This document shows, one piece after another, positions 3,174 through 44,874 of a stretch of DNA of 64,000 nucleotides. Numbering within the stretch: the stretch's first letter is position 1; every line of letters begins with the position of its first letter. Below the pieces are notes generated by a model. The model saw nothing but the letters and a program-made list of their open reading frames with translations, searched no databases and was not told the DNA's origin. The position numbers and the translations under genes are program-made. This DNA is from Escherichia coli (GTDB taxonomy: Bacteria > Pseudomonadota > Gammaproteobacteria > Enterobacterales > Enterobacteriaceae). The stretch lies in assembly GCF_048403405.1 (NCBI RefSeq), contig NZ_CP183129.1. One strand, given 5' to 3'.

Positions 3174-4826
3174 ATGTTTTGTGTGCAATGTGAACAAACT
3201 ATCCGTACTCCGGCAGGAAACGGCTGCTCATACGCGCAGGGGATGTGTGGTAAAACGGCGGAAACCTCTGACCTTCAGGATTTACTCATCGCGGCGCTGC
3301 AAGGGCTTTCGGCCTGGGCGGTAAAAGCGCGTGAATACGGCATCATCAACCACGATGTAGACAGCTTTGCGCCACGCGCATTTTTCTCAACCCTGACCAA
3401 CGTTAACTTCGATTCTCCGCGTATAGTCGGCTACGCTCGTGAAGCGATTGCCCTGCGCGAGGCGCTGAAAGCACAATGCCTGGCTGTAGATGCCAACGCC
3501 CGCGTCGATAACCCGATGGCTGACCTGCAACTGGTGAGCGATGATCTCGGCGAGCTGCAACGTCAGGCAGCAGAATTTACCCCTAACAAAGATAAAGCGG
3601 CGATTGGCGAAAACATTCTCGGCCTGCGCCTGCTGTGCCTGTATGGCCTGAAAGGTGCGGCGGCCTATATGGAACACGCACACGTTCTCGGTCAATACGA
3701 CAATGATATTTACGCCCAGTACCATAAAATCATGGCGTGGCTGGGGACCTGGCCTGCCGATATGAACGCGCTTCTTGAGTGTTCAATGGAAATCGGCCAG
3801 ATGAACTTCAAAGTGATGAGCATTCTGGATGCAGGCGAAACCAGTAAATACGGTCACCCGACGCCAACCCAGGTCAACGTCAAAGCGACGGCGGGTAAAT
3901 GCATTCTGATTTCCGGTCACGATCTCAAAGATCTCTACAACCTGCTGGAACAGACCGAAGGCACGGGCGTTAATGTCTACACCCACGGCGAAATGCTGCC
4001 TGCGCATGGCTACCCGGAGCTGCGTAAATTCAAGCATCTGGTCGGTAACTACGGCAGCGGCTGGCAGAATCAGCAAGTGGAGTTCGCTCGTTTCCCTGGC
4101 CCCATCGTGATGACCTCGAACTGCATCATCGACCCAACCGTAGGCGCTTATGACGATCGTATCTGGACCCGCAGCATCGTTGGCTGGCCGGGTGTGCGTC
4201 ATCTGGATGGCGAAGATTTCTCTGCGGTCATCGCCCAGGCGCAACAAATGGCGGGCTTCCCGTACAGCGAAATTCCGCACCTGATCACCGTGGGCTTTGG
4301 TCGTCAAACGCTGCTTGGCGCAGCCGATACGCTGATTGATCTGGTAAGCCGTGAAAAACTGCGTCATATCTTCCTGCTTGGCGGCTGTGACGGCGCACGC
4401 GGCGAGCGTCACTACTTCACCGATTTCGCCACCAGCGTGCCGGATGACTGTCTGATCCTGACTCTCGCCTGTGGTAAATATCGCTTTAACAAACTCGAGT
4501 TTGGCGATATCGAAGGTCTGCCGCGTCTGGTAGATGCTGGTCAGTGTAACGATGCTTACTCAGCGATTATTCTGGCGGTAACGCTGGCAGAGAAACTGGG
4601 CTGCGGAGTCAACGATCTGCCGCTGTCGCTGGTGCTCTCGTGGTTTGAACAGAAAGCGATTGTCATTCTGCTGACACTGCTTTCTCTGGGTGTGAAAAAT
4701 ATCGTCACCGGCCCGACTGCACCAGGTTTCCTGACACCAGATCTGCTGGCGGTGCTGAACGAGAAATTCGGCCTGCGTTCTATCACCACTGTTGAAGAAG
4801 ACATGAAGCAACTGTTGAGCGCGTAA
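3174..4826 (+). CDS. hcp: hybrid cluster protein / hydroxylamine reductase
   Basis: Translation [28 protein letters not shown]... with N-terminal Cys cluster; 550 aa from ATG 3174. Confidence 0.95.
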
Positions 4827-40593: not shown

Positions 40594-40618
40594 AAGGGGG
40601 AGACGCTTTCTCCCCCTT
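40594..40618 (-). terminator. probable terminator downstream of bssR
   Basis: Perfect hairpin aagggggaga-cgctt-tctccccctt immediately after the bssR stop; flanked by T-rich sequence on the minus strand. Confidence 0.45.
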
Positions 40619-41219: not shown

Positions 41220-42545
41220 ATGAGCAAAGTAACTCCCCAGCCGAAAATCGGCTTTGTTTCCCTTGGCTGCCCGAAAAACCTTGTCGATTCAGAGCGTATT
41301 CTCACCGAACTACGCACTGAAGGTTATGACGTGGTACCGAGCTATGACGATGCGGACATGGTGATCGTCAACACCTGCGGCTTTATTGACAGCGCGGTAC
41401 AAGAATCACTGGAAGCCATTGGTGAAGCGTTGAATGAAAACGGCAAGGTAATTGTGACCGGTTGTCTGGGGGCAAAAGAAGATCAGATCCGCGAAGTCCA
41501 CCCGAAAGTGCTGGAAATCACCGGGCCTCATAGCTATGAGCAGGTTCTGGAGCATGTTCATCACTACGTGCCAAAACCGAAACACAACCCATTCCTGAGC
41601 CTGGTGCCAGAACAAGGTGTGAAACTGACGCCGCGTCATTATGCCTATCTGAAAATTTCTGAAGGCTGTAATCACCGCTGCACCTTCTGCATTATTCCGT
41701 CTATGCGCGGCGACCTGGTGAGCCGTCCGATTGGCGAAGTGTTAAGTGAAGCGAAACGTCTGGTAGATGCTGGCGTTAAAGAGATTCTGGTGATCTCGCA
41801 GGATACTTCCGCCTATGGCGTTGATGTTAAACATCGTACTGGCTTCCACAACGGCGAGCCGGTAAAAACCAGCATGGTCAGCCTGTGCGAACAGTTATCG
41901 AAACTGGGGATCTGGACACGTCTGCACTACGTTTACCCTTATCCGCATGTGGACGACGTCATCCCACTGATGGCAGAAGGCAAAATCCTGCCGTATCTGG
42001 ACATTCCGTTGCAGCACGCCAGCCCGCGCATTCTCAAACTGATGAAGCGTCCGGGTTCTGTAGATCGCCAACTGGCGCGCATCAAACAGTGGCGCGAAAT
42101 CTGCCCGGAACTGACCCTACGCTCAACCTTTATTGTCGGCTTCCCTGGCGAGACGGAAGAAGATTTCCAGATGCTACTCGACTTCCTGAAAGAAGCGCGT
42201 CTGGATCGCGTTGGCTGCTTTAAATACAGCCCGGTTGAAGGTGCAGACGCCAATGCCCTGCCTGACCAGGTTCCGGAAGAAGTGAAAGAAGAACGCTGGA
42301 ACCGTTTCATGCAGCTGCAGCAGCAGATTTCCGCCGAGCGCCTGCAAGAGAAAGTGGGCCGTGAAATTCTGGTGATTATCGACGAAGTGGACGAAGAAGG
42401 CGCGATTGGTCGCAGCATGGCAGATGCACCGGAAATCGACGGCGCGGTTTATCTCAATGGTGAAACCAACGTTAAGCCGGGTGATATCCTGCGTGTGAAA
42501 GTCGAGCACGCCGATGAGTACGATTTGTGGGGTAGCCGGGTTTAA
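41220..42545 (+). CDS. rimO: ribosomal protein S12 methylthiotransferase RimO (radical SAM)
   Basis: 441-aa translation [25 protein letters not shown]... with radical-SAM CNHRCTFC motif. Confidence 0.96.
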
Positions 42546-42729
42546 TTAATCTTAAGGCAGATCTAACAAGGATATTGTTCTTCGATCTGCCTCTGCTACC
42601 CTTCCCGATGTCCTACCCTTACGCACAAAATCCCCTGACGCATAAATCGAGAAAAATGAATCGTACTCGAGGCAACTCTCACTTTTTCACACCAAATTAA
42701 AGTTTTGATCGCAATTACTTGAAATAAGC

Positions 42730-42755
42730 GTAATGGTTACTATAGTAAACATTAC
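42730..42755. promoter_or_regulatory. 26-bp near-perfect palindrome; candidate operator for the downstream toxin-antitoxin operon
   Basis: gtaatggttactatagtaaacattac (single mismatch from perfect dyad symmetry) ending 15 nt before the toxin start codon. Confidence 0.5.
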
Positions 42756-42770
42756 CACAAGGATGGATGT

Positions 42771-43157
42771 ATGGGTGTGTATAAGGCAAGACGATTCAGC
42801 CAAAGCACGAAAAAACTTGGTATTCACGATAAAGTTCTCATGGCTGCCGCTGAAGAAGTGATGCAGGGCATATGGGAGGCTGATTTAGGTAGCGGTGTCA
42901 TCAAAAAACGTTTACCCCTCCAACAAGGAAAGAGTGGTGGAGCCAGAACAATTATCTTTTTTAAATCAGCAAATCATGTGTTTTTTTATGATGGTTGGTC
43001 CAAGAGTGGTCTAAGCAGTAAAGGAACCAAAGAAATCGAAGATGATGAACTGGCGGCCTACAAAAAAATGGCAAATGCATTTCTGGCCTTTAGCAATAAG
43101 CAAATAGAGGATTTGATCGAAACTGGCTTTTTGATTGAGGTGAAAAATGAGCGATAA
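42771..43157 (+). CDS. putative type II toxin, RelE/ParE superfamily (HigB-like; toxin-first operon)
   Basis: 128-aa basic protein MGVYKARRFSQSTKKLGIHDKVL...GKSGGARTIIFF...; AAGGA RBS; overlaps downstream HTH gene by 11 nt. Confidence 0.65.
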   Translation: MGVYKARRFSQSTKKLGIHDKVLMAAAEEVMQGIWEADLGSGVIKKRLPLQQGKSGGARTIIFFKSANHVFFYDGWSKSGLSSKGTKEIEDDELAAYKKMANAFLAFSNKQIEDLIETGFLIEVKNER

Positions 43158-43476
43158 ATTACAAATGATGCTGGAAGATGCAAAGGAACTGAATGCACTG
43201 GGCCTGATGTCTGATAGTGAAGTTGATGCCATTGCCGTCATGGTCAAAGCTCGTGAAGTCAGCGCCCGTATAGCCAAAGTCAAATCAATGACGGGTGAAG
43301 AGATCAAAGCCATCCGCACCCGATACGGCATGTCACAATCCGTGCTGGCACATACAATGGGAATGTCAAAAGAAAGTGTCTCGAAATGGGAACGTAATGA
43401 AATAAAACCGAGCGGCCCGGCATTACGTATTTTGAATACATTGGCAATAAAAGGGCCGGAAGTTTTTGCAAAGTAA
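43147..43476 (+). CDS. putative antitoxin with C-terminal XRE-family HTH (HigA-like)
   Basis: 109-aa protein; C-terminal GMSQSVLAHTMGMSKESVSKWERNEIKPSGPALRILNTL is a typical Cro/C1-type HTH; translationally coupled to the upstream toxin-like gene. Confidence 0.65.
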   Translation: MSDKLQMMLEDAKELNALGLMSDSEVDAIAVMVKAREVSARIAKVKSMTGEEIKAIRTRYGMSQSVLAHTMGMSKESVSKWERNEIKPSGPALRILNTLAIKGPEVFAK

Positions 43477-43504
43477 AATGTTTGCAAATGATTTACCACA
43501 TTCA

Positions 43505-43532
43505 TTAGTACCCCTTGATTAAGGGGTACTAA
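43505..43532. terminator. strong hairpin between the antitoxin gene and convergent dgcI
   Basis: Perfect 12-bp stem ttagtacccctt-gatt-aaggggtactaa. Confidence 0.5.
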
Positions 43533-43545
43533 CACTATTCTAATT

Positions 43546-44874
43546 CTACTGCCAGCTAATCTGCGCCCTGCCGTTTTTCTTACTCTTATACAGCCGCTCA
43601 TCCGCCAGCATTTTCAAGCGTTCGACGGTAGTACATTCATTTGAATGCGCTACACCGATACTGGTGCTTAAATTAATGCTTCCCACCTGGAAATGAACGA
43701 TTTCTTTTAGAATCGATAGCAACTCTTCCAGCGTTCCACCCGTATAAATCACCGCAAATTCGTCACCGCCGAAGCGGTAGACTTTACCTTTATCTACCGG
43801 GATCTGTGATTTAAGGATTTTCACCACTTTCATCAACACTTCATCGCCCAGCAAATGACCGAAGGTGTCGTTGATGTTTTTGAATTTATCGACGTCAAAC
43901 AGGCACAAATAACCGCCTTTTTCCGGTAGCGCTTTTAAATCTTCGTCAAAGGATTTTCTGCCCATCGCTTTGGTCAGGTCGTCCAGGAACGCCGAGTTAT
44001 ACAGACTGTAGAGTTTTTTGACATCGGCAGCCGAAAAGAAAAGCCCGCCATCCAGTACGCGTTCAAAATGGTTATTAATAATGGCTTCTTTCTCCACAAT
44101 ACCACGATTAATCACTCTGCGTACCAGATAGAGGCAACTGACACCCGATATCACTGCCACCAATGCGGCAAAGAAAATAATCAATGTACAGACCCGCAAA
44201 TAAACATCTTTTTTATACGCAAATACGTACAATCCGGTCGGCAAATAGGCGAAGTGCTCCATCGCTTCCGAAACGGTGAAGATGGCGTTTTTAGCATTAT
44301 ATTCATCACCGGTCACCGGTTTACCGTTCTTAAACAGAGAGAACATCAGGTTCTCGCTATCCATCGCCAGCGATTTTGACAGTAAAGAAAAACGCTCCAG
44401 ACCAAGCAAAAATATCAGACTACGATTATGAGTTACCGGATAGAGGTAATAGACGAAGGTTTTACCGTCAAAAGAGATAAACCCTGTATTTTTGACATGT
44501 CGATACTTCACAATCTGCATAATATCTGCACAATAATTTTTCTCGAACTCCTTTACCTGAATACATTCGTCACTGGAAATCAGATAAGGACCGACATCGT
44601 ACAAATAAGAGGGTGAAAGCGAGTCGGCGTAAGCTGTGCGTAAGCCAACCAACAGCTGTTCCTCCGTGGGGTTTAGCGTGTTGATAAGATCAATTGCCAC
44701 GCTACGCCGATATTCAGCAATATTTGCCACCGCAAAAGCAGTATCAATAACGGACTGTTTCAGGCCATACACCCGTTCCTTTACCATTTGAGTGTAGATC
44801 CCGCAGGCAACTGCTGAAATCATGATAAAAATCAGCAGACTGACTGTAAGTACGAACTTATTGATTCTGGACAT
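43546..44874 (-). CDS. dgcI: diguanylate cyclase DgcI (YliF)
   Basis: 442-aa translation [23 protein letters not shown]... with GGDEF motif (RFGGDEFAV). Confidence 0.93.

Follow-up and report, generated by a model that had tools for sequence, protein, structure and literature searches.

In E. coli, mRNAs terminated by Rho have their steady-state 3' ends directly after stable stem-loops devoid of a U-tract; these stem-loops block PNPase and RNase II, and rut sites follow immediately downstream (PMC6061677). Hairpins located between convergent genes position the polymerase collisions that drive bidirectional termination (10.1101/2022.10.23.513370), and REP palindromes act as combined terminator-stabilisers (10.64898/2026.03.23.713779). 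Here we analyzed a hairpin found between a toxin-antitoxin (TA) operon and the convergent gene dgcI in a stretch of 64,000 nucleotides of an E. coli genome (contig NZ_CP183129.1, hereafter the window), and we conclude that it is most likely a further instance of this well-known kind of element and as such an ordinary feature.

The left conserved flank of the locus is formed by rimO (41220..42545, + strand). A variable segment of about 996 bp (42551..43546) follows, replacing the spacer of about 41 bp that is present in K-12-type genomes. A left-hand hairpin, AGGCAGATC...GATCTGCCT (42555..42592, -15.5 kcal/mol), is found 10 nt past the rimO stop; its sequence is unrelated to that of the right-hand hairpin at 43505-43532 which is our subject. 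The TA promoter, TTGAAA-16-TATAGT, together with an operator palindrome conserved in the family, occupies 42719..42755 (+ strand), the palindrome itself, GTAATGGTTAC-TATA-GTAAACATTAC at 42730-42755, overlapping the -10 box. The operon is of the toxin-first type: a toxin of 128 aa (42771..43157, + strand; PF06296, E = 6.9e-33; HigB-2-type RelE family) precedes an antitoxin of 109 aa (43147..43476, + strand; HTH_3, E = 1.9e-9; weak MqsA/NadS-like similarity), and the two genes overlap by 11 nt. PF06296 we take to be the HigB-2-type family of ribosome-dependent mRNases. With a PF06296 toxin, an overlapping HTH antitoxin gene and a promoter carrying a palindromic operator, the operon would be a HigB-2-type type II module, toxicity and neutralisation being predicted. 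A right-hand filler specific to the E. coli allele (43477..43546), without a homologue in any of the TA relatives, occupies the stretch from the antitoxin stop to where K-12-type sequence resumes, and is followed by dgcI, encoding a GGDEF diguanylate cyclase (43546..44874, - strand). The gap from the antitoxin stop to the dgcI stop is 69 bp; the hairpin begins 28 nt past the former and lies 13 nt past the latter, in agreement with an earlier note on this DNA, whose placement of the hairpin between the two stops is borne out by the ORF coordinates. An 8-bp palindrome, TTTGCAAA, is also present twice in this region, at 43465-43472 and 43481-43488, 16 bp apart; its copies flank the antitoxin stop codon on both sides and are part of a 13-nt direct repeat. 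An Rfam scan of 42400-43800 at E <= 10 returned no match, our literature search found no paper linking rimO or dgcI to this TA module, and entries for rimO and dgcI are absent from the tables of Adams 2021.

The hairpin (43505..43532, both strands) consists of the arms TTAGTACCCCTT and AAGGGGTACTAA around a GATT loop, 43505-43516 pairing with 43521-43532. A repeat search recovered the two arms of 12 nt each with 100% complementarity and a spacing of 4 nt. The 28-mer RNA folds with -17.2 kcal/mol on either strand (z about -4.6, no shuffle folding equally well), and in folds of the entire 84-nt spacer the hairpin dominates. Of the 12 pairs in the stem 5 are GC, which makes it fairly AU-rich. Allowing up to 3 mismatches, the hairpin pattern occurs once in the 64-kb window and never in 100 shuffles; perfect stems of at least 12 bp with loops of 3-8 nt are found at only 3 sites in these 64 kb and in none of 30 shuffles. 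The hairpin is more than chance, and the perfect 12-bp stem with its gatt loop, as first described from the letters alone, is confirmed by repeat search, folding and shuffles. Among the other long hairpins of the window, that at 1760-1791 has a very GC-rich perfect stem of 12 bp without tail (-28.9 kcal/mol), that at 18699-18729 combines a 13-bp perfect stem with a strong T-tail (score 4.78) and is a canonical terminator, and that at 40594-40618, between bssR and yliI, has a tail-less perfect stem of 10 bp.

A 1301-bp query covering the locus matched 5425 of 5426 complete E. coli genomes, with full cover in 1128; in the remaining 4297 of the 5426 genomes 23% of the query was covered, within 347 bp, and the rimO-dgcI spacer measured 46 bp. 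This 46-bp distance between the rimO and dgcI stops was found in K-12 BW25113, in ATCC 25922 and in a third strain. The K-12-type gap, TTAATTCAGGCCGGGCAAAATCATTTGTCCGGCCTGCGAATAATGA, holds a different, GC-rich hairpin, AGGCCGGGCAAA-atca-TTTGTCCGGCCT, folding with -19.9/-16.3 kcal/mol. In the alignment the variable segment is bounded on the left directly past 42550, 5 bases beyond the rimO stop, and on the right between 43546 and 43547. The right boundary falls within the stop codon of dgcI, which is TAG in the filled alleles, including the present one, and TAA in K-12 and the empty alleles. From these boundaries it follows that about 996 bp replace about 41 bp. Their position at both stop codons points to recombination in the conserved flanks by which the intergenic region was exchanged as a whole. 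The hairpin belongs to the replacing segment, whose right edge is 13 nt away, and K-12-type genomes lack it. The comparison with K-12 downstream of dgcI, which the earlier note had called for, thus assigns the hairpin to the TA-bearing segment and shows that it is not native; the insertion described in the same note is too simple a picture, the native spacer of about 41 bp, with its own hairpin, having been replaced and not interrupted. An origin of the K-12 spacer from the antitoxin 3' region, with which it shares GGCCGGA and CAAATGATTT, was considered and rejected, the local alignment being no better than shuffles (p = 0.086).

Several variants of the locus were encountered along the way. 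In strain C10 (L005, 1748-2445) an IS1 is inserted directly past the antitoxin stop and parts the operon from the hairpin; in strain STK78-E (L004, 3294-3991) an IS1 is found just past rimO, pdeI-dgcI being missing and gsiD following the IS. Some E. coli (L034-L036, P0046) carry a shorter DgcI of 408 aa, 91% identical, next to a site of the empty type. Position 43564 in dgcI, near the right junction, is tri-allelic (C, A, T) among the aligned strains. A contig binned in a 'Collinsella sp.' MAG (L008, JAIJJM010000872.1) is 100% identical to the E. coli locus and its assignment is likely to reflect binning contamination, and two 4.9-Mb 'plasmids' among the PLSDB hits (H81, H83) are evidently E. 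coli chromosomes.

The region of the hairpin tail was recovered from 1138 E. coli genomes, as a single copy in each except in the IS-split cases. Position 43521, part of the loop-closing pair, is polymorphic: A in 697 genomes, giving the 12-bp stem and 4-nt loop, and C in 437 genomes, O157:H7 and ATCC 8739 among them, giving an 11-bp stem and a 6-nt loop with -16.3 kcal/mol. The two alleles differ in stability by less than 1 kcal/mol, and the loop-closing pair is the sole common polymorphism in the hairpin among the 1138 carriers. The expression "perfect 12 bp" thus describes only one of two common alleles. Carrier genomes are at least 98.8% identical, and the hairpin sequence has no homologue outside E. 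coli. A stem 'variant' (C-to-G) in L026 was discarded, as the metagenome assembly in question is of low quality and its antitoxin is truncated.

Mobility is common among TA modules, and in Vibrio those of HigB-2 type are found as integron cassettes. This background, the distance of only 13 nt between the hairpin and the right boundary and the presence of a subterminal hairpin at the left boundary too could speak for an element acting in recombination or at the insertion junction, be it a transposon end, an attC-like site or a different site-specific recombination site, through which the TA module was acquired. We nevertheless regard such an element as very improbable. The ends of the segment show neither terminal inverted repeats nor a target-site duplication, as a transposon or IS end or a MITE would, and the two end hairpins are unrelated. 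The native spacer was replaced, not interrupted, with boundaries at two stop codons, and no recombinase or transposase gene is adjacent. By inspection, the hairpin is a bulge-free perfect palindrome without the RYYYAAC/GTTRRRY cores, unlike attC, and neither integrase nor cassette array is found nearby. It is single-copy and confined to this locus in the 1138 genomes; with one copy in the window and one place per genome it does not behave as a REP or other dispersed palindromic repeat either. The relatives share homology only over the stretch from the -35 box through the antitoxin stop, and plasmid copies of the TA family lack the hairpin: when plasmids were searched with the whole insert, matches were confined to TA genes from distant relatives and never extended to filler or hairpin. 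The suggestion that the hairpin is part of the insertion junction itself fails on position as well, the junction lying 13-14 nt further right, within the stop codon of dgcI; the insert ends are free of inverted repeats and of a target duplication, and the hairpin of the other end is unrelated. A scan of metagenomes for AGTACCCCT-N6-AGGGGTACT gave 48 loci, 3 of which are the E. coli locus. A dispersed hairpin family was rejected as an explanation for the others, which are unrelated hairpins with differing loops and flanks on contigs of 30-73% GC. In this set, palindromes with 23-bp stems, TATACTAAATTTAAGTACCCCT...AGGGGTACTTAAATTTAGTATA, recur in freshwater contigs (L045, L047, L048, L059, L076, L084); they have only a 9-bp core in common with the E. 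coli hairpin and represent an unrelated repeated element.

The earlier note had also proposed a bidirectional terminator insulating the TA module from dgcI. In its canonical form this would be a Rho-independent element whose hairpin alone releases polymerase arriving from either side. A stable stem-loop in the nascent RNA, as required of an intrinsic terminator, is predicted on both strands, and the hairpin sits exactly between two convergent stop codons; moreover, at this same relative position the distant TA homologues of Morganella and Providencia possess a true intrinsic terminator. The 3' flanks nevertheless argue against it. A T-tail score in the style of d'Aubenton-Carafa was computed and a consensus terminator scan was run alongside. 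The sequences following the stem score 0.48 on the + strand (CACTATTCTAATTCT) and 1.21 on the - strand (TGAATGTGGTAAATC), and the score stays at or below 1.3 even when the tail is taken to include the AU-rich base of the stem; the Morganella TA terminator scores 2.85-4.5 and that at 18699-18729 of the window 4.78. The uridine-rich tract expected directly 3' of the stem is lacking on both strands, as is an A-tract upstream of it, and GC pairs make up only 5 of the 12 in the stem. The consensus scan did not call the hairpin, though it called two other sites nearby. With these tail scores and no U-tract the hairpin is not a canonical bidirectional intrinsic terminator, and it is unlikely to release RNA polymerase alone; we consider the canonical reading improbable. 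The K-12 hairpin that was replaced is likewise tail-less, with scores of 0.11 and 0.48. A looser insulating role is likely, in which the hairpin would pause polymerase and protect 3' ends, with Rho or polymerase collisions assisting.

Antitoxin relatives were recovered at 17 loci from species-representative genomes and at more from metagenome assemblies. In the nearest relatives (antitoxin 74-81% identical) DNA homology extends from the -35 box (about 42715) to the antitoxin stop (43477); it ends exactly there, and the hairpin is therefore located in E. coli-specific filler. Even so, in most TA relatives a strong hairpin follows the antitoxin stop within about 30 nt, every time with an unrelated sequence: CCCGTCAGAA-14-TTCTGACGGG (-18.6 kcal/mol) in L009, AGCCCGGCC-11-GGCCGGGCT (-20.4 kcal/mol) in L010, GGCGCTGCGTA-9-TACGCAGCGCC in L027/L028, AGCGAAGGCGGG-7-CCCGCCTTCGCT in L029, and in L013/L014/L007 AAAGCCCCT-5-AGGGGCTTT (-13.4 kcal/mol) with a true U-tract, the Morganella/Providencia intrinsic terminator reading AAAGCCCCT-aaatc-AGGGGCTTT followed by TTATCTTTC. 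No perfect hairpin was found downstream of the antitoxin in L025 and L006. The rimO-dgcI site of a diverged Escherichia-like genome (L033, DgcI 78% identical) is empty and holds a hairpin at 4330-4369, ACCCGGCGA-gttgt-TCGCCGGGT (-17.0 kcal/mol), which is followed by TTTTCCTTTATT and thus forms a proper intrinsic terminator for rimO; an apparent 109-aa 'antitoxin' beside the diverged dgcI in the same contig proved to be the C-terminal part of RimO, truncated where the contig ends. Conserved position and stability combined with a complete turnover of sequence are what would be expected of a generic transcript-end structure and not of a sequence-specific site.

The history of the module itself can be glimpsed from some of these loci. 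TA homologues with antitoxins 74-78% identical are present at the syntenic site in the uncultured Enterobacteriaceae genome UBA5654 (L009 1625-2330, rimO-TA-gsiD) and in Kluyvera sichuanensis (L010 1624-2330, bssR-TA-gsiD), both of which are without pdeI-dgcI. The module may therefore be long-standing or recurrent here, an old resident or recurrent visitor rather than a recent insertion in E. coli. In L027 (1388-1830) and L028 (601-1043) an antitoxin homologue, 72% identical, adjoins gsiD and only the 3' part of the toxin gene is alignable, from window position 43034 onwards; this looks like an orphan antitoxin left after decay of the toxin.

The same comparisons have to be weighed against the absence of any function, that is, a neutral palindrome hitch-hiking in the filler of the TA-bearing allele. 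The filler that holds the hairpin has no homologue in any relative, the carriers are so similar (at least 98.8%) that no selection can be read from the conserved stem, and tail-less hairpins are common in the intergenic regions of the window. Against this, a perfect 12-bp palindrome never arises in shuffles, all other alleles and most relatives have a similarly stable hairpin at the same spot, and the sole common change among the 1138 carriers falls at the least damaging position of the stem. Neutrality appears unlikely to us.

A recognition site for the antitoxin was the other sequence-specific role to be weighed. MqsA binds ACCT...AGGT palindromes and the HTH of the antitoxin is MqsA-like; one arm of the hairpin has TAGTACCC in common with the operators of the Morganellaceae homologues, and the hairpin can be read as two abutting GTAM-N3-KTAC-like sub-sites. 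It might on these grounds be a second operator, acting as a roadblock or looping partner downstream of the antitoxin's own operon. The true operator, GTAMYNNTTAC-TATA-GTAANNRKTAC, is conserved from E. coli to the Morganellaceae upstream of the toxin at 12 loci (L006, L007, L009-L013, L017-L019, L022, L029; window 42730-42755) and consists of two 11-bp sub-palindromes (GTAM-N3-KTAC) on either side of the -10 box, an arrangement which suggests that two antitoxin dimers may bind, 15 bp apart. The hairpin does not match this operator consensus. A position weight matrix was built from the operators of 11 relatives and used to rank 127,980 positions: the true sub-sites obtained 16.4 and 13.6 bits (ranks 1 and 8), as opposed to -0.3 and 4.6 bits (ranks 1227 and 190) for those of the hairpin. 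The hairpin sub-sites are moreover spaced by 11 bp and not 15 bp, and the downstream hairpins of the relatives bear no likeness to their own operators. We hold a second operator to be extremely improbable.

We favor, with somewhat more than even confidence, a hairpin that serves as a 3'-UTR stem-loop common to the convergent TA and dgcI mRNAs, protecting their 3' ends and pausing polymerase while Rho or collisions complete termination. As expected of such an element, a stable stem-loop without a U-rich tail lies past the stop codon and, being a perfect palindrome, it forms the same stem-loop of about -17 kcal/mol in either transcript. The stretch directly downstream of it on the TA transcript (43533..43612, + strand) is rich in C and poor in G (35% C, 12% G); its C-minus-G value is at the 99.6th percentile of the window for 80 nt. 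This stretch is antisense to the dgcI 3' end, is common to K-12, and constitutes a candidate rut region. On the dgcI transcript the 80 nt past the hairpin are AU-rich, with 19% C and 14% G (70th percentile). Rut-like composition directly downstream is thus present on the + (TA) transcript and absent from the - (dgcI) transcript. Polymerase would pause at the nascent hairpin, and transcription running into the untranslated antisense of the opposite gene would then be ended by Rho, which on the TA transcript could act at the C-rich, G-poor run starting immediately after the hairpin, and/or by head-on collision with a converging polymerase. Exonucleases working from 3' to 5' would trim the RNA to the base of the stem, fixing and stabilising the mature 3' end, with the net effect of limiting antisense read-through from the antitoxin gene into dgcI and the reverse. 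On sequence grounds, the best-supported interpretation is that the hairpin would be the functional counterpart of the K-12 hairpin that was replaced.

A more regulatory scenario, to which we give very little credence, would make of the hairpin a leaky gate coupling c-di-GMP signalling to the TA switch, with the A/C polymorphism tuning the leak. Transcripts of dgcI passing the hairpin would run antisense through the antitoxin gene and lower antitoxin expression, the first terminator-like site on the dgcI-sense strand being encountered about 85 nt further in (43421-43407); the HigB2-type toxin would then be freed whenever dgcI is strongly induced. This site (43407..43421, - strand), a 6-bp stem followed by TTTATTTCAT, is located inside the antitoxin gene and could be a backstop against dgcI read-through; it is to be noted that terminator-like sites in the region are no more numerous than chance predicts.

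Taken as a shared 3'-UTR stem-loop, the hairpin is of slight importance beyond annotation, where it should not be entered as an intrinsic terminator. In the gap between these convergent genes a hairpin of about -16 to -20 kcal/mol is invariably present, however freely the sequence is replaced: at least 3 unrelated hairpins occur at this junction across Escherichia, others follow the TA homologues in other genera, and when the spacer was swapped for the TA module the incoming DNA brought one hairpin per side. About one E. coli strain in five, O157:H7 and ATCC 8739 among them, differs from K-12 in the 3' UTR and stop codon of dgcI, and this could affect comparisons of dgcI expression between strains.

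Set beside known systems, the hairpin resembles the Morganella and Providencia TA terminators in its position past the antitoxin stop and in a similar CCCCT/AGGGG core, but these possess a U-tract (score 2.85-4.5) and an upstream A-tract. With REP elements (10.64898/2026.03.23.713779) it shares the nature of an extragenic, tail-less 3'-UTR palindrome of strain-variable presence and the proposed ability to limit read-through and block decay, whereas it is present in one copy per genome, without REP sequence similarity or an Rfam match. The overlapping bidirectional terminators driven by collision, identified by SEnd-seq (Ju et al. 2019) and known to us as presented in Wang et al. 2022 (10.1101/2022.10.23.513370), likewise consist of a single hairpin element between convergent stops, and the present hairpin could similarly pause polymerases from both sides and fix the point of collision; in that account both genes must be highly expressed for them to work efficiently, whereas the TA operons and dgcI are probably weakly expressed. 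The stem-loops of Dar & Sorek 2018 (PMC6061677) resemble it in being stable, shortly past the stop and without a uridine-rich tail and, on the TA side, in being followed directly by a C-rich, G-poor, rut-like stretch. The present hairpin differs from them in having no rut-like composition on the dgcI side, and in that one palindrome would serve two converging mRNAs.
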